A stretch of DNA of 64,000 nt from an uncultured cyanobacterium (GCA_963803805.1 CAWDOD010000002.1:704001-768000), one strand, 5' to 3'; positions 12,216-17,651 are shown, counted from the stretch's first letter. The notes: a model not told the origin generated them from the letters alone. Program-made: numbers and translations.

Positions 12216-12239
12216 GTAGTAGCACAACATAGTTAATTT

Positions 12240-12278
12240 AAACAGTGGGAAGTTGGTTGATTTTCCCACTGTTTTTTT
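12240..12278 (+). terminator. Rho-independent terminator after clpC
   Basis: Stem AAACAGTGGGAA / TTCCCACTGTTT followed by a T run, ~25 nt after the clpC stop. Confidence 0.75.
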
Positions 12279-12322
12279 ATGAATCTTTTCGGGTTAATGT
12301 TAATAATTACGAGGCTAAACTT

Positions 12323-12616
12323 ATGACTCCAAACCTTAAAGCTGCGATCGCAGCCATTAAACCACTTTCACCTGTAGAGCGTCAGCAACTGCTACAAATT
12401 CTTAACCAGGATATTCCAAATCCTGACTACCAAGCTGATTTGGTAAACCTCAGTAGCCAATTTTGGCAAGGTGTTACTTTAAAGCAATTATGCACTAATC
12501 AAACACCCAAGACCATTTTTAATATCAAAGATTTAGCTGCTGATTTTTGGATAGAAGAGGATTCCATAGAAGATTTTCTGGTTTTTCTTCGACAACAACG
12601 ACAAGAAGCCATTTAG
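12323..12616 (+). CDS. Hypothetical protein, antitoxin-like
   Basis: ATG at 12323 preceded by GAGG; LSPVERQQLLQIL...FWIEEDSIEDFLVFLRQQR. Confidence 0.6.
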   Translation: MTPNLKAAIAAIKPLSPVERQQLLQILNQDIPNPDYQADLVNLSSQFWQGVTLKQLCTNQTPKTIFNIKDLAADFWIEEDSIEDFLVFLRQQRQEAI

Positions 12617-12657
12617 CTAAAGCTCTATACTGAAAGTGAGCTTCTAGGACAAATTAC

Positions 12658-12972
12658 ATGACAGCAGTCATTTCAGAACATATTGACATTACCCCAGGCG
12701 TATGTGGTGGTAAACCACGTATTGCTGGACATCGGATTAGAGTACAAGATATTGCTATTTGGCACGAACAGATGGGAATGTCTCCTGATGAAATTGTCTC
12801 GCGCCATCCTAGTATTACTTTGGCAGATGTCTACGCCGCCTTAGCTTATTACCATGACCATTTTGAAGAGATTAGAACAGCCATTCGAGAAAGTGAGACT
12901 TTTGTGCAGAAGTTGCAAGAAACTATTCCTTCTAAAGTACAGCAGAAGTTAAGAGGCACAATAGTCCCTTGA
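12658..12972 (+). CDS. DUF433 antitoxin-like protein
   Basis: ITPGVCGGKPRIAGHRIRVQDI...ITLADVYAALAYY. Confidence 0.9.
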   Translation: MTAVISEHIDITPGVCGGKPRIAGHRIRVQDIAIWHEQMGMSPDEIVSRHPSITLADVYAALAYYHDHFEEIRTAIRESETFVQKLQETIPSKVQQKLRGTIVP

Positions 12973-13052
12973 TTAGTGAAATAGTGCGGGGATTAGTTTT
13001 GATTTGGGAAGTATTAAAGCAGCAAGAGATTTTGCTAGATTGTTTGTTATAG
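12969..13052 (+). pseudogene. Remnant (C-terminal helix only) of a DUF5615 PIN-like toxin
   Basis: Reads ISEIVRGLVLIWEVLKQQEI.., resembling the DUF5615 C-terminus, at the position where the toxin normally follows DUF433. Confidence 0.5.
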
Positions 13053-13059
13053 CCAGCGA

Positions 13060-13470
13060 ATGAGAGATAAATTTCACAATGCTGTAAAACACGGACTAGA
13101 AAAGGATGGCTGGACAATTACTGATGATCCTCTGAGGATTAGGTCTGGCCGAGTTGATATGCAAATAGATTTAGGGGCTGAGAGATTACTGGCAGCAACA
13201 AAAGGAAACGAAAAAATTGCTGTTGAGATAAAAAGCTTTACCAATCCATCTAATATTTCTGAGTTCCATACGGCTCTGGGACAATTTTTAAATTACCAAG
13301 TTGCTTTAGAAGAGCGTAACTCAGAATTTAACTTGTTCCTAGCAGTACCGATTGGCACATTCAGAACTTTCTTTAGCTTGCCATTTGTGCAAACGGTAGT
13401 TAAGCGTTTCCAACTTAGTCTCTTGGTTTATGACCCATCCGAAGAGGTGATTTTAGAATGGAAAAAGTAA
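13060..13470 (+). CDS. xisH: XisH-family protein
   Basis: RDKFHNAVKHGLEKDGWTITDDP...IDLGAE...IAVEIKSF...ALGQFLNY. Confidence 0.92.
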   Translation: MRDKFHNAVKHGLEKDGWTITDDPLRIRSGRVDMQIDLGAERLLAATKGNEKIAVEIKSFTNPSNISEFHTALGQFLNYQVALEERNSEFNLFLAVPIGTFRTFFSLPFVQTVVKRFQLSLLVYDPSEEVILEWKK

Positions 13471-13793
13471 TCCAATATCGCCAATATATTAAACAACTTT
13501 TGAGGGATTATGCCAGTAAAAGTCCATCTGATCAAGATGTGGAAACTGCATTAATCTTTGACTCAGATCATGACCATTATCAAGTTGTTTACACAGGCTG
13601 GAAGAATCGCCAACCAATGTATGGTTGTGTTCTACACTTCAGCATCAAAAATGCCAAAATTTGGATACATCATGATGGCACTGAAATTGGTTTTGCTAAC
13701 GAATTTGTTAAGTTGGGAGTACCGAAGAGCGATATTGTACTAGCATTTCAAGAACCTGCTATGCGACAATACACTGATTTTGCAGTGGGCTAG
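13458..13793 (+). CDS. xisI: XisI-family protein
   Basis: DHDHYQV..GW...KIWIHHDGTEIGFANEFVKLGVPKSDIVLAF; overlaps xisH. Confidence 0.92.
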   Translation: MEKVIQYRQYIKQLLRDYASKSPSDQDVETALIFDSDHDHYQVVYTGWKNRQPMYGCVLHFSIKNAKIWIHHDGTEIGFANEFVKLGVPKSDIVLAFQEPAMRQYTDFAVG

Positions 13794-13901
13794 TAGTTTG
13801 TCAATTTTCAATTGACGGGTAAGGGGTCAAGGGGAAAGGTTAAGGGAAATGAAGAATTTAGAATTATTACCCCATTTTGGATTGTGCCTTTATTATCTCT
13901 G

Positions 13902-14090
13902 TTGCGGAACGATTCATTTGCCATACAGTATAACTAATACTTATTACTTAGCCATTCATTCCTGTTACGGAGCCATTCATTTGACTTACTATATAATTCA
14001 TTCTTATTACGCAATGATTCATTCATAATACGGAATGATTTATTTGACTTACGGAACGATTTATTTGACTTAATGTATAATCAAATCTTA
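13902..14090. repeat. Degenerate tandem array, 9 x 21 bp
   Basis: Exact 21-nt period without indels, e.g. TTACGGAGCCATTCATTTGAC, ATACGGAATGATTTATTTGAC, TTACGGAACGATTTATTTGAC. Confidence 0.85.
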
Positions 14091-14098
14091 TTACATAA

Positions 14099-16108
14099 CT
14101 AATTATTTTTCTTACTGAACCATCTTTTCACTAAAGACAATAGCCTATCTCTCCAATTCTCTACTTTCCCCATCCTCCTCAGAAGGGAAGCCAAATTATT
14201 CCGAGTAGCCACCGTATTGGGATGATTTTTACCTAAGACCTTTTCACATAACTCTAAAGCCTGTAGTAAAAAAGGTTCAGCCTCTTCGTACCTCCCTTGG
14301 TCATAGTAGAGTACTGCCAGGTTGTTAACACTGGTTGCTACATGAGGGTGTTCTTCTCCCAAGAGTTTTATTCTTAGGTATAAGGCTTGTTGATACAAAG
14401 GTTCAGCCTCCTCGTACTTCCCTTGGTCATTGTAGAGTAATGCCAGGTTATTGACACTGCTTGCCACATGAGGATGGTCATCTTCCAGAAGTCTTCTTAA
14501 GGCTTGTTGATACAAAGATTCAGCCTCCTCGTACCTCCCTTGGTTATCGTAGAGTAATGCCAGGTTGTTGAGACTGGATGCTACATCAGGGTGGTCATTT
14601 CCTAGGAGTTTCTTTCTTAGGTCTAAAGCTTGTAGATACAAAGGTTCAGCCTCCTCGTACCTCCCTTGGTTATCGTAGAGTAATGCCAGGTTGTTGAGAC
14701 TGGTTGCTACATAAGGGTGGTCATTTCCTAAGCGTGCTTTGGTTTTTTCTAAGCATTGTTTTCTATGGGGTAGTGCCTGTTGATAAATACCTTGCCCTTC
14801 GTAAAAACGAGCCATACCCACAAAAGGCCAAATTAAATCTTCATCCTCGACAAATTCAGTCCAACTTGCTAAAACCTCTCCTAAATGGGGAATTGCCCCC
14901 GTAAACTTGGCTACATCTTCTAGGGTTGTTGTCTCAGGTATCTCCTTCGCTACAGCCACCATCACCTTACAGAAACTCTCCTTCAACCTCGCACAACCCT
15001 CCAACTCCCCTAACTTCTCCCGCAAAAACTCATGAATCAAAGAATGAAGTTCATAACTCCCTTTACCCTTCCTTTGCAACAAACTAGCTTCCAACAAAAC
15101 CTCATCCCGGATATCTTCCAACTCCTCCTTATCCTCATTCGGTAAACAACTCTCCACCAAACCCCAAGCAAAAGGCGCAACAGCAAACACACTCAACAAA
15201 CAAGCCACCTCCTGGGCAGACTCATTTAACTCCTGCCAACTCAACTCAAAGGCTGCCCTCACTCCCCTTTTTGCCGTCATATCTCCTGGGATTTTCGTCA
15301 ATGCCCTCTGGCTTAACTTCTTCTGTTGCAAACGCTGTTGCATCTCCCCCAAAGATAAATCCTGCTTCCCCTTGAGATAACGCCCCACCAACTCTATCCC
15401 TAAAGGCAAATATCCCAACCACTCACAGATTCTTTTAGCTGTTTCCCTTTCCCTATCTATCCTTTCTTCTACCTCTACCAAAAACTCCAACAACTCCAAA
15501 GCCGCAGCTTCTGTTAATACCTGCAACTCCAAATTGGTAAAGCCTGCGGTTAAACCCTGTTGCCTGGTGGTGACTAAAACCTTAAATCGATTTTCTGTGG
15601 GTAAATAGGGACGGAGGTTTTTGAAGTTAATTACATCGTCCAAAATTAATAAAACTTCCCCAGGAAACCAATTATCCCAGCAATATTGCACCTGGGTGGT
15701 TAAATCCACATCCTTGGGAATGTTTAACTTTCGGTAAGTTAACCCTAATTCAATAATCTGTGCTGGTAAGTCCTTATCCCTGACATCTAACCAACAAATA
15801 CCCCCAGGATAGGTATTCTCTTCCCGATATTGATAGGCATATTGAATAGCTAATTCCGTTTTGCCAATACCCCCCATCCCCGTAACGGCAGTGATGGCAA
15901 CCTTTTCCTTTTCCTGTAATTCTTGGTGTAGGGTTTTTAATTCTTCTTTTCTACCGACAAACTTAGCAGTAGGGAAAGGAATAGAGAAAGGAGGTTTACT
16001 TTCCTTTTCGGGGTAATTATATTGATGAATTTCCTGCTTGATGTTGCTATTAACCGCCTTACCAACACCAGTAAAGTTTTTGATCTCGTCCCCTTGATTT
16101 TCTGCCAT
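14099..16108 (-). CDS. NB-ARC (STAND) ATPase with C-terminal 42-aa TPR repeats, NLR-like
   Basis: FVGR, Walker A GMGGIGKT, Walker B LLILDDV, LVTTR, YLPL, LHSLIHEF; repeats HPxVAxSLNNLALLYxxQGRYEEAEPLY. Confidence 0.92.
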   Translation of the reverse strand: MAENQGDEIKNFTGVGKAVNSNIKQEIHQYNYPEKESKPPFSIPFPTAKFVGRKEELKTLHQELQEKEKVAITAVTGMGGIGKTELAIQYAYQYREENTYPGGICWLDVRDKDLPAQIIELGLTYRKLNIPKDVDLTTQVQYCWDNWFPGEVLLILDDVINFKNLRPYLPTENRFKVLVTTRQQGLTAGFTNLELQVLTEAAALELLEFLVEVEERIDRERETAKRICEWLGYLPLGIELVGRYLKGKQDLSLGEMQQRLQQKKLSQRALTKIPGDMTAKRGVRAAFELSWQELNESAQEVACLLSVFAVAPFAWGLVESCLPNEDKEELEDIRDEVLLEASLLQRKGKGSYELHSLIHEFLREKLGELEGCARLKESFCKVMVAVAKEIPETTTLEDVAKFTGAIPHLGEVLASWTEFVEDEDLIWPFVGMARFYEGQGIYQQALPHRKQCLEKTKARLGNDHPYVATSLNNLALLYDNQGRYEEAEPLYLQALDLRKKLLGNDHPDVASSLNNLALLYDNQGRYEEAESLYQQALRRLLEDDHPHVASSVNNLALLYNDQGKYEEAEPLYQQALYLRIKLLGEEHPHVATSVNNLAVLYYDQGRYEEAEPFLLQALELCEKVLGKNHPNTVATRNNLASLLRRMGKVENWRDRLLSLVKRWFSKKNN

Positions 16109-16192
16109 TGGCTTTAGATGATTAAGTAATGGTTTTTCCTACACCCCAATGGTTTCAATCCACTTATTCTAACCTTGAAAAAATCAACCATT

Positions 16193-16336
16193 TGTAGGGG
16201 CGACCCGTTGATATCAACCTGGCTACTGACAAATCAATTACATTGGGTCGCCTGCACCACCAATAATTACTGGTCAGGGCGACCCATTATATTGAGGGGT
16301 GGGTGACTAAAACAAGGAAAGCGGGTCGCCCCTACA
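16193..16336. repeat. REP/MITE-like element with 15-bp perfect inverted ends and nested internal copies
   Basis: TGTAGGGGCGACCCG (16193-16207) and CGGGTCGCCCCTACA (16322-16336); internal GGGTCGCC and GGGCGACCC. Confidence 0.8.
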
Positions 16337-16460
16337 TATCACTAATTTTTTGATTTTTACCTTGACATTCAAGACAATCATGGTGGGCAAAGAAATCAGT
16401 TTTGATTTACACCCAATCGTTTGATATTAATTTGCCTACCCTACCAAGAACTTTAAATTC

Positions 16461-16496
16461 TTGTTCCCCCAGAATTGGGGGTTAGGGGGCAAAACG
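16461..16496. repeat. Short G/C hairpin repeat of a type dispersed in cyanobacteria
   Basis: CCCCCAGAATTGGGGGTTAGGGGGC directly after the stop of the small gene. Confidence 0.55.
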
Positions 16497-16503
16497 ATCA
16501 AAT

Positions 16504-16932
16504 TTATTCTACCTGTTTAACTTCCTCAGCCTCCGAAGCAGGCAACCCAGGTAATTCAATCTCAAACTTATCTGATAACTCTAAAACATTATTAGTAAAA
16601 TCCGTTGCCGTCGCCACCGCACCACTAAGGGGCATCGAAACTGCTAAAAGTGCTGCCAAACCAGCCTTGAGCTTAAAACGCTTCTTCTTCTCATCAGGAT
16701 TATTCACCTGTTGTTGTAAATCTTCTAAATGACTTTCTGCTTCTTCCCTTTGTTCGTCAGGAAAACTCTTAGCTAAATTAGATAACGAATCAATTAAGCG
16801 AATAATCTCAGCTAAATCCTGTTTCTCATTCTTATTGATGTTGTTTAAATTCTGAGTAACTGTCCCCCCTGAAACTTTACCAATACCGACAAAGTCCTGA
16901 ATTGTATCCCCAGAAGAATTTTTGTTAACCAT
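16504..16932 (-). CDS. Small NLR-partner protein: N-terminal G/N/Q-rich motif plus helical domain with hydrophobic segment
   Basis: ATG at 16932 preceded by AGAGGA; N-terminal motif matches the N-terminus of the adjacent NB-ARC protein; contains KLKAGLAALLAVSMPLSGAVATA. Confidence 0.8.
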   Translation of the reverse strand: MVNKNSSGDTIQDFVGIGKVSGGTVTQNLNNINKNEKQDLAEIIRLIDSLSNLAKSFPDEQREEAESHLEDLQQQVNNPDEKKKRFKLKAGLAALLAVSMPLSGAVATATDFTNNVLELSDKFEIELPGLPASEAEEVKQVE

Positions 16933-17000
16933 AACTATCCTCTTTACTTGCGATCGCACTGGTTAAATTCATTCTAAAACTTTTAAGAAGCGGGTTTTTC

Positions 17001-17651
17001 TTAACCGGATTTGATATTATTTCCTAATCTCTTCAAAACCCTTAACACCTCATAAAGCTCATTTTGCAGAGGTAAAAGGGAAAAAATACGAGAAATATCA
17101 TATTGCGGTGTTCCCTGACGACTTAATTTCAGAAAGAAGAACTCTCCCCCGTTAGTTGCTATAGCAAACACTGGCTTTTCCCTATCAGGACTAGCCATCA
17201 TATAAGCTAAAGTTTGAGGAATTGCTAGATCAAGGTTAACTTCTTTCCCTTTAGATTCTAAAACAGCTATCCATAATCCTTGAGATACTACTAAAAAATC
17301 AACTCTCCCTCGTAAAACTTCATCAGAAACTTCGCTTTTAGCCACAGATGTACTAACTTCAACCGCAACTTCTCCTTGCATCTGAAACGGAGGATCATAA
17401 AAACCAGCTAATTCTAATAAAGGTGATAAAACTAGTAAGTTAACTAAACTTTCAGCTAAATTACCGTTCGCTCTATGATAGCGATATCTAGCTTTAATTC
17501 TGTCTAAAACGGCTTTTTCTGCCTCAGTTAAAGCGGCTAGATTTTGCTGCCATTCGGTAAAAAAGTCAACATCAGCACTACGAACTAAATTAAAATGCCG
17601 CTCTGCTTCTGCAATAGTGGTAATTCTTTTGGTAATTGCTGTTTGAGCCAT
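17001..17651 (-). CDS. Stand-alone type I restriction HsdR N-terminal-like PD-(D/E)XK protein
   Basis: LSPLLELAGFY..PF...LRGRVDFLV...VLESK...AIPQTLAYM...ATNG; family common in cyanobacteria. Confidence 0.78.
   Translation of the reverse strand: MAQTAITKRITTIAEAERHFNLVRSADVDFFTEWQQNLAALTEAEKAVLDRIKARYRYHRANGNLAESLVNLLVLSPLLELAGFYDPPFQMQGEVAVEVSTSVAKSEVSDEVLRGRVDFLVVSQGLWIAVLESKGKEVNLDLAIPQTLAYMMASPDREKPVFAIATNGGEFFFLKLSRQGTPQYDISRIFSLLPLQNELYEVLRVLKRLGNNIKSG

Follow-up and report, generated by a model that had tools for sequence, protein, structure and literature searches.

What connects an NLR-like receptor that bears no effector domain at its N-terminus with the small gene lying just upstream of it? 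The question is posed by a 64,000-nucleotide stretch of DNA from an uncultured cyanobacterium (GCA_963803805.1, CAWDOD010000002.1:704001-768000), referred to below as the window, which carries at positions 14,099 to 16,932 a gene for an NLR-like (NOD-like receptor) protein of the STAND class (signal transduction ATPases with numerous domains) and a gene for a small candidate effector. The leader of the receptor and the N-terminal part of the small protein share a short sequence, here called the tag, beyond what chance would give. The most likely explanation, which we would put at about an even chance, is that the two genes form a sensor and executioner pair working by amyloid-like templating from tag to tag, so that the sensor would probably switch on a membrane-attacking killer module through the shared sequence. 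The parts of the two genes are the following.

14099..16108, minus strand: NLR-like STAND gene, 669 aa, with a 53-aa leader, NB-ARC and a tetratricopeptide repeat (TPR) array (open reading frame call and Pfam)
16016..16093, minus strand: tag in the NLR leader, residues 6-31 (translation)
15311..15949, minus strand: NB-ARC ATPase domain, residues 54-266 (PF00931, E 5.6e-19; Walker A GMGGIGKT)
14213..14818, minus strand: TPR sensor region, about residues 431-632 (TPR_12 1.4e-66, TPR_10 3.8e-66, TPR_NPHP3)
16504..16932, minus strand: small candidate effector gene, 142 aa, tag followed by four-helix bundle (open reading frame; relatives share the start)
16834..16911, minus strand: tag (pre-helix element) of the small protein, residues 8-33 (translation)
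16567..16833, minus strand: predicted four-helix bundle, residues 34-122, with helices at 34-54, 59-77, 81-102 and 107-122 (AlphaFold2)
16609..16665, minus strand: hydrophobic, small-residue-rich segment, residues 90-108, running through helix 3 into the following loop; a candidate for membrane insertion

In the receptor, NB-ARC (PF00931) is recognised with 68.8 bits (cut-off 23.5), its P-loop reads GMGGIGKT, and TPR repeats follow. Pfam assigns no domain to the first 53 residues, in agreement with the initial annotation of an NB-ARC-TPR protein devoid of an N-terminal effector domain. The open reading frame (ORF) of the small gene was called at 16504-16959 on the minus strand; the ATG at 16932, preceded by the Shine-Dalgarno-like AAGAGGA, gives 142 residues, and its methionine is the common start of four relatives, P0002-P0005, with 84-92% identity. 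The same calls reproduce both the co-oriented small upstream gene and the position that had been proposed for it.

Residues 6-31 of the NLR and residues 8-33 of the small protein align without gaps, with 9/26 identities, of which 7 fall in the first 12 positions; translating 16016-16093 and 16834-16911 returned exactly the two 26-mers and the identity counts of the initial annotation. Receptor and effector motifs of the HET-s type are described as only about 30% identical in the available part of PMC8086366, and 9/26 therefore lies within the known range. The 36-aa NLR leader was compared with the full set of 8,994 ORFs (60 aa or longer) of the 5.3-Mb genome; after the leader itself, the adjacent small ORF was the top match, with a Smith-Waterman score of 65 against 44 for the runner-up. 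A six-frame search of the genome with the small protein returned only the protein itself and the NLR leader, the latter at a genome-wide E of 0.6, and a degenerate DNA pattern covering the first 12 tag residues, built from the pair itself and hence post hoc, hit two sites only, its reversed control none. An NLR orthologue of metagenomic origin, P0007 (84% identical), starts GDEIKNFTGIGKVDGGNVTQIIN, which is identical to GDTIQDFVGIGKVSGGTVTQNLN of the small protein at 15/23 positions; this leader scores 79 against the small protein's tag, the maximum being 49 in a null of 17,520 comparisons with shuffled NLR N-termini. A word-index search with the tag region found nothing that scored among longer proteins. 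The genome carries one copy of the small protein's domain and two NB-ARC-like ORFs, the one besides the near-full-length window NLR matching at E 5.6e-6, and the adjacency of a single clear NLR and a single module copy is hard to get by accident.

The resemblance is held at the protein level. Identity of the tag-coding DNA is 38/78 (23/36 in the first half, 15/42 in the second), three of the nine shared residues (D, I and K) are specified by synonymous codons, as had been pointed out, and the 80 nucleotides 5' of the two start codons are unrelated (17/80 identical). A recent DNA duplication is ruled out by these three observations, and the preference of the initial annotation for protein-level conservation is upheld. 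The first half of the tag equals the NB-ARC domain in conservation when the NLR orthologues P0006 and P0007 are compared (11/12 and 186/213 identical, respectively, with 19/22 in the linker), and in the full-length effector relatives P0002-P0005 the element retains 19-24 of 26 residues and the bundle 77-82 of 89.

What, then, does the tag precede? The small protein matches no Pfam or NCBIfam family. A phmmer search of 1.84 billion representatives returned 221 sequences at E<=1e-3 and 88 at E<=1e-10 (for P0127, E 2.4e-22), the match spanning query residues about 20-130 and lying at the C-terminal end of each target. The matched module ends the polypeptide, with at most 40 residues after it in 149/153 proteins (median 5), and 20 residues follow helix 4 in the window protein. 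These alignments indicate that an unnamed C-terminal module stands alone in the small protein. Because the module is always C-terminal, its tag must be N-terminal to it, which explains the layout that the initial annotation had called inverted. The module occurs in 38/401 genomes sampled across the phylum (21/156 genera) and in 62/401 genomes sampled from the order, and the named records that bear it are all cyanobacterial or unclassified metagenome-assembled genomes. Several of the "small" metagenomic representatives are fragments; P0231 and P0272 start inside a winged-helix region.

The proteins in which the module is embedded suggest what it does. A Pfam scan of 66 relatives found pentapeptide repeats in 27, leucine-rich repeats (LRR) and/or Roc-COR in 6, the abortive-infection domain AbiTii in 2 and a winged helix in 3, and no Pfam model over the shared C-terminal part in any of them. 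The C-terminal ~110 positions of PADLOC PDC-M14B match the module (E 1.4e-7); PDC-M14 is a candidate system only, and no description of it was found in the literature searched. Beside an Argonaute gene (L049, first protein PADLOC pAgo_II, E 2.6e-219), the second protein, of 498 aa, matches "Aga_Helical-REase" over its first 289 residues (E 7.9e-35) and ends in the module, an apparent effector swap in which the module replaces the REase part of the Argonaute-associated protein. Judged from such arrangements, the module seems to occupy the position of the killing domain in conflict systems, which supports an effector role.

Two of these settings recur as gene pairs and are recorded here as observations in their own right. 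The Argonaute operon was seen at seven loci of Microcoleus and Dulcicalothrix (L049, 4561-8378; L050, L051, L052, L055, L056 and L057), with a first protein of 777-785 aa (679 aa in L050) and an overlapping second gene encoding 496-498 aa. Behind often split LRR-Roc-COR genes (L035:7989-8995, L036, L040, L045, L067, L071 and L074-L076) lies a pair consisting of a DUF6883 protein (111 aa) and a protein of about 225-238 aa in which DUF4926 is followed by the element and the bundle.

Structure prediction, which had been proposed as a check, gave for the small protein a four-helix bundle behind a disordered N-terminus: in the AlphaFold2 model, computed from a 52-sequence alignment, residues 1-32 have a predicted local distance difference test score (pLDDT) below 50, residues 31-40 a score of 57 and residues 41-130 scores of 76-89. 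Residues 90-108 are rich in Ala, Gly and Ser and have a 19-residue Kyte-Doolittle mean of 1.66; by the same measure 124/151 family members reach at least 1.6 (median 1.8), and the hydrophobic helix is thus conserved in the family. Model and hydropathy agree with the claimed helical remainder containing a hydrophobic stretch, and the claim that a different domain stands behind the N-terminal motif is likewise borne out by a helical block that is not of the Bell or HeLo type and has a conserved hydrophobic helix. Foldseek found nothing for the model at E<=0.001; the best VIA-align match was YicC (Z 11.8), Bab and Babybell were absent from the VIA-align matches listed, and a sequence profile search of the PDB gave nothing below E 0.025, that is, no solved relative.

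Among 52 module members no known family recurs above threshold, and two candidate identities were rejected. TCAD2 (PF19971), a protein-atlas lead with a score of 0.90, has no Pfam match in the window protein, lies outside the 25 most frequent of the 60 families matched by the 52 members and was found in 0/151 genomes, including the module carriers G000, G005, G026, G041, G050 and G062; a remote relation is possible. The family pP_pnuc_1 matched 1/52 members, below its cut-off.

Is the tag, in turn, part of the module? When the 50 residues before helix 1 were listed for all located module members, a segment of ~30 residues rich in Gly, Asn and Gln was seen before the bundle in nearly all members inspected, small forms and fusions alike. 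These pre-helix elements fall into roughly eight sequence types. The window tag resembles the commonest, "SGSGTVSNFSQNI", its VGIGKVSGGTVTQNLNNINKN corresponding to IGFVQSGSGTVSNFSQNIGHN in P0151. For 24 fusions with an element of the commonest type the frequency of the top residue is 0.53-0.73 in the element, 0.24-0.43 in the linker upstream and 0.52-0.76 in the bundle; two glycines and one glutamine are invariant, and short runs of strand-like character lie between the invariant glycines. The element thus belongs to the module and is under selection within it. Over 139 proteins it contains 11.6% G, 15.0% N, 9.7% S and 8.6% T, but only 2.3% L, 3.6% K, 1.6% R and 2.2% P; V, at 5.5%, and I, at 7.2%, show no rise over the bundle. 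The window tag itself has five G, four N, three V, three I, two Q, one K, one L and no P. The description of the motif as G/N/Q-rich and Pro-free is therefore accurate, and the composition fits that reported for bacterial amyloid signalling sequence (BASS) motifs, in which, as far as the available text of Dyrka et al. (2020) goes, Q, N, G, V and I are enriched and K, P and L depleted; across the family most of this bias is shared, the exceptions being V and I.

A fusion protein, P0140, illustrates how an element may be mounted within a single chain. Its AlphaFold model begins with a pentapeptide beta-helix (residues 1-240) and continues through a small alpha/beta unit to a helix of 63 residues (310-372), from which the element (373-396, with pLDDT below 50) leads to the bundle (398-488); on oligomerisation, elements mounted in the modelled way would come to lie in register. 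A further observation concerns two metagenomic pentapeptide proteins (L082:181-1578 and L083:1-900), in which an FNAPVGSVGN-type motif, that of P0272, precedes a different, unnamed C-terminal helical domain; because the motif is found before another domain there, motifs appear exchangeable between effector domains.

The tag of the window NLR is a copy, to judge from the alignment, of the element's core, set at the very N-terminus where an effector domain might otherwise stand, and the same seems to have happened elsewhere with other elements. The window NLR has 2,833 homologues at E<=1e-10, and every one with an organism name is cyanobacterial; in others of these homologues CHAT, caspase, TIR or trypsin domains stand at the N-terminal position. 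A set of 146 elements, aligned to the N-terminal 90 residues of 120 listed NLR homologues (null maximum 49), gave scores of 87 for the P0272 element FNAPVGSVGNQGSQTNIAGEVGGKQV with the N-termini of the NB-ARC/TPR proteins P0123 and P0115 (FDGPVGAVGNRGTQHNVAGRVEGDQV), 84 for the same element with the NB-ARC/TPR protein P0063, and 56 and 54 for the P0207 element with the NLRs P0019 and P0049. Sequence similarity of this strength indicates that other element types have been reused independently at other NLR N-termini, outside the window lineage, and that the elements behave as portable tags.

These relations make it possible to sketch how the window pair would work. The TPRs would sense a ligand and the NB-ARC domains would oligomerise; the N-terminal tags, clustered in this way, would enter an in-register, amyloid-like beta assembly, as in NWD2/HET-S and Bell/BASS, and this assembly would recruit and template the matching element of the small protein. 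The bundle would then be forced open and its hydrophobic helix would pass into the membrane, so that the cell is killed or arrested (abortive infection). In the single-chain relatives, which hold the element between sensor and bundle, oligomerisation of the sensor would do in cis what the NLR does in trans. We infer each of the essential properties, namely binding, beta or amyloid assembly, membrane activity and a role in defence.

The wiring proposed is that of the Bell/BASS-NLR pairs (BASS1-10, Dyrka et al. 2020; BASS11, Bab/Agp of E. coli, Ibarlosa et al. 2024). Shared with these are a motif of ~25 residues, rich in G, N and Q and poor in K, P and L, carried both on the N-terminus of an NB-ARC/TPR protein and on a small helical protein with a hydrophobic helix, a small gene that is adjacent, collinear and upstream, a cyanobacterial host, and the proposed logic of a sensor with a membrane-targeting executioner. 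The differences lie on the effector side. The motif of Bell effectors is C-terminal, whereas that of the window protein occupies residues 8-33 of 142; in Bell/Babybell four helices cup an N-terminal hydrophobic helix 1, whereas it is the third helix of the window bundle that is hydrophobic, behind a polar disordered N-terminus, the non-Bell assignment being a comparison with the published description of Bell and not with a profile. The element is also built into single-chain sensor-effector fusions, and the genes are 395 bp apart. BASS families are defined by recurrence in at least five pairs, whereas the window pair does not recur in the genomes sampled. With three defining features of BASS/Bell systems thus lacking (a C-terminal motif, a Bell effector and recurrence in at least five pairs), the window pair is not filed as a BASS member.

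Other parallels are looser. As in NWD2/HET-S of Podospora, templating of an effector motif by an NLR motif is proposed to free a membrane-inserting helix; HET-S, however, combines an N-terminal HeLo domain with two pseudo-repeats at its C-terminus, the window protein one N-terminal element with a C-terminal bundle, and the two pairs have no sequence relation. The effector-associated domains (EADs) analysed by Kaur, Burroughs, Iyer and Aravind (2020/2021) provide, in the portions of those papers available, a homotypic adaptor on a STAND N-terminus and on a neighbouring effector, as in the window, but EADs are globular, about 77-123 positions long and covered by Pfam models, and the window tag is a disordered stretch of ~26 residues with no Pfam match. 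PDC-M14B and "Aga_Helical-REase" proteins, the latter beside pAgo_II, have the same tag-plus-bundle module at the C-terminus; unlike the window pair, they are single chains with other N-terminal parts and no NLR.

Several findings weigh against templating between the two window proteins, and recurrence is the first of them. A neighbourhood survey covered 57 module loci, 35 with a protein of at most 260 aa and 22 with a long one, and looked for an NB-ARC-like ORF within 6 kb; its probe was the window's own NB-ARC region (phmmer), with which NACHT and other STAND classes would be missed. The underlying locus searches used the narrower alignment A3, the family alignment A1 being too diverse, and 13 + 32 + 13 loci were inspected. 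An NB-ARC neighbour was found in the window only, that is, in 1/35 small forms and 0/22 long forms, so that the recurring NLR/partner adjacency set beforehand as a test was seen at one of the 57 loci, the window itself; as far as sampled, the pairing of NLR and module is rare or confined to the window lineage. The element also occurs in single-chain fusions, where templating in trans is unneeded, and AlphaFold gives it no beta structure in either the small protein or P0140; its primary role may be something other than trans-templating. The NLR tag of the window genome has drifted in its second half, both from the orthologue (4/14 identical) and from the effector (2/14), which could mean a decaying coupling. 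The two genes are separated by a 395-bp spacer with a 174-bp insert resembling a miniature inverted-repeat transposable element (MITE), against at most 10 bp in most BASS pairs (91% collinear, 57% spaced <=10 bp, in the available part of Dyrka et al. 2020). The modelled fold is that of a generic four-helix bundle, many unrelated helical bundles reaching Z 8-11 in VIA-align, and the membrane activity of the small protein is proposed from hydropathy.

Further searches for NLR pairs were in line with this scarcity. The majority of small forms lie behind a Roc-COR or pentapeptide gene and could be split fusions. None of 401 genomes of the order matched a degenerate DNA pattern written for a second motif type; a metagenome scan with P0272 returned two pentapeptide proteins and no NLR; tblastn against plasmids, with the window protein and with P0147 as queries, found nothing for the former and a single pentapeptide fusion for the latter. 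A search for neighbours with the same motif within the other small-form loci gave none convincing, two Roc-COR loci scoring 56-57 against a cross-locus control that is confounded by homologous modules, and a search for motif-like partners in G647 found nothing. In G402, of the same family as the window genome, the only motif-like match besides the small form itself (E 0.42) lies inside a LysM/M23-type protein and was set aside as chance. The amyloid-signalling pair of the initial annotation thus survives in part: the shared tag, its N-terminal position and the non-Bell effector hold, whereas recurring adjacency, in the loci sampled, does not, and neither does the implied specificity of the tag for an NLR partnership, since the element precedes the bundle in partnerless single-chain fusions too. 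Two divergent stand-alone small forms, both adjoining contig ends (L097:8004-8363 of G402 and L096:264-650), may be noted here as well; their N-terminus is rich in Gly and Asn, and their third helix is less hydrophobic.

Could the tag be simpler than an amyloid? It might be a short homotypic docking peptide, acting by beta-strand augmentation or as a small zipper, with stoichiometric recruitment of the helical effector to the activated NLR, in the manner of the globular EADs, and no prion-like templating; this is possible, if somewhat doubtful, and it is the alternative that fares best. EAD1, EAD4 and EAD10 were verified by Pfam in homologous NB-ARC/TPR proteins at the very position of the window NLR's leader, an EAD-type family being present in about 48 of the 120 NLR homologues listed (hand count of Pfam lists), and in the accessible part of Kaur et al. 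(PMC7159879) EADs on adjacent genes are each other's closest relatives. The P0253 element aligns with the strand-like end of the EAD10-type leader of the NLR P0040 (score 65), by which EADs and short tags may be related. In the window NLR good conservation is limited to the first 12 residues, a short stretch for an amyloid core, and AlphaFold's lack of a beta fold for the tag is as expected of a docking peptide. Neither tag, however, contains a Pfam EAD or any other Pfam domain, and no EAD family matches either protein at E<=0.1; the element is ~30 residues long, disordered and largely BASS-like in composition, with conserved glycines between strand-like runs, and its place after a long helix in the modelled fusion favours in-register stacking. 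Independently of this question, the N-termini of EAD10-type NLRs (P0022, P0037, P0079, P0118 and others) were seen to close with a strand-like run of G, N and Q, such as GKYNVNIGQGQDIHIGDR, that resembles the free elements.

The tag might also be a relic, some 30 NLR codons acquired by old recombination with the neighbour's 5' end, the two proteins acting independently, which we consider unlikely. The decay of the second half of the NLR tag in the window genome, the spacer with its mobile-element insert and the absence of an NLR neighbour from the 56 other module loci would all suit such an origin. Conservation of the first half, identical at 11/12 positions between orthologues and so conserved like NB-ARC, speaks against it, as do the 15/23 match of P0007 to the effector tag, the holding of the similarity at protein level (38/78 DNA identity, synonymous differences, unrelated upstream DNA), the independent presence of other element types at other NLR N-termini, and the improbability that a lone clear NLR should adjoin a lone module copy by accident.

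That the tag is a common handle for a third factor, such as a protease, a chaperone or a phage protein, by which the two proteins would be co-regulated with no mutual binding, strikes us as very unlikely. The element is conserved yet disordered and is present in partnerless single-chain fusions, and proteolytic release of latent effectors has been described for other defence modules (PMC12642450, in the part available), which fits a handle of this kind; the islet around the pair, however, has no protease or chaperone gene, and about eight unrelated element types suit address tags matched to partners better than one common site. Chance resemblance of two low-complexity N-termini, to which the bare 9/26 identities and the six-frame E of 0.6 genome-wide might be thought to speak, we consider already refuted by a rank of 1/8,993 with a clear gap and by the much stronger match of P0007; the restriction of the DNA pattern to two adjacent sites in 5.3 Mb also speaks against it.

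If amyloid-like templating is the correct explanation, amyloid-type immune signalling would be independent of the Bell/HeLo layout. Effector-side motifs are placed at C-termini only in the available parts of Dyrka 2020, Pysz 2025 and the review PMC13506858 (2026). The literature searched, as far as its text was available, holds no N-terminal effector-side motif and no account of the module, of which a supplementary BASS or PDC table could hold one, and the module is not described in the accessible portions of Kaur et al. 2020 and 2021. From the same partial texts, published screens took the C-termini of Bell proteins only (Dyrka 2020) and later training sets C-terminal effector motifs (Pysz 2025); since C-termini alone were taken, N-terminal or internal motifs would have been missed.

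It is tempting to generalise, tentatively and with the chances as we see them leaning against it, to an undescribed cyanobacterial death-effector module in which a beta-prone "address" element and a membrane-inserting bundle would fire on in-register stacking behind many sensors. On that reading the window would show the trans version of the module and hold the first amyloid-type NLR/effector pair with the motif N-terminal to the executioner, a mirror image of HET-S and Bell, and amyloid-like switches would also exist inside single-chain immune proteins. The analysis also delineates a sizeable unnamed module, lacking a Pfam model, that is common to proteins linked to NLR, Roc-COR, pentapeptide, AbiTii and Argonaute. 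It offers one testable hypothesis for killing by several poorly understood cyanobacterial conflict proteins, and the window pair, small (142 aa and 669 aa) and self-contained, is a convenient system in which to test it.

The genomic surroundings add two features to those listed above.

16178..16351, strand not applicable: palindromic MITE-like element, 174 bp, within the 395-bp spacer between the NLR gene and the small gene
17001..17651, minus strand: 216-aa PD-(D/E)XK/HSDR_N-like gene, upstream and co-oriented; a context gene

Three co-oriented minus-strand genes thus follow one another in the order PD-(D/E)XK-like gene, small gene and, after the spacer, NLR gene. The first ends 68 bp before the small gene and matches Pfam HSDR_N at E 1.9e-5 (25.0 bits, just under the cut-off of 25.1) and PADLOC PD_DExK at E 5.5e-5. 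The MITE-like element has terminal inverted repeats of 30 nt, 83% complementary, and an inner palindrome; three more diverged copies lie in the same genome and many partial ones in the congener G401.

The pair belongs to an islet of about 12216-17600, reaching from ClpC to a histidine-kinase gene, and its neighbours there, DUF433, XisH, XisI and the HSDR_N/PD-(D/E)XK-like protein, are those expected from the toxin-antitoxin, xisHI and nuclease surroundings of the initial annotation. In G401, of the same genus, no counterpart of the islet was found except TPR-repeat and MITE-like fragments; the ClpC flank (92% identity) and the kinase flank (89%) are kept, on different contigs. Because the islet is missing there while its flanks are retained, the NLR/small-gene pair is regarded as accessory. 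The GC content of the islet segment, 0.397, does not differ from that of the whole window (0.400). Just 3' of the NLR stop codon, at 13900-14095, tandem imperfect units of ~22 nt, "aatcgttccgtaagtcaaata...", are recognisable by eye.

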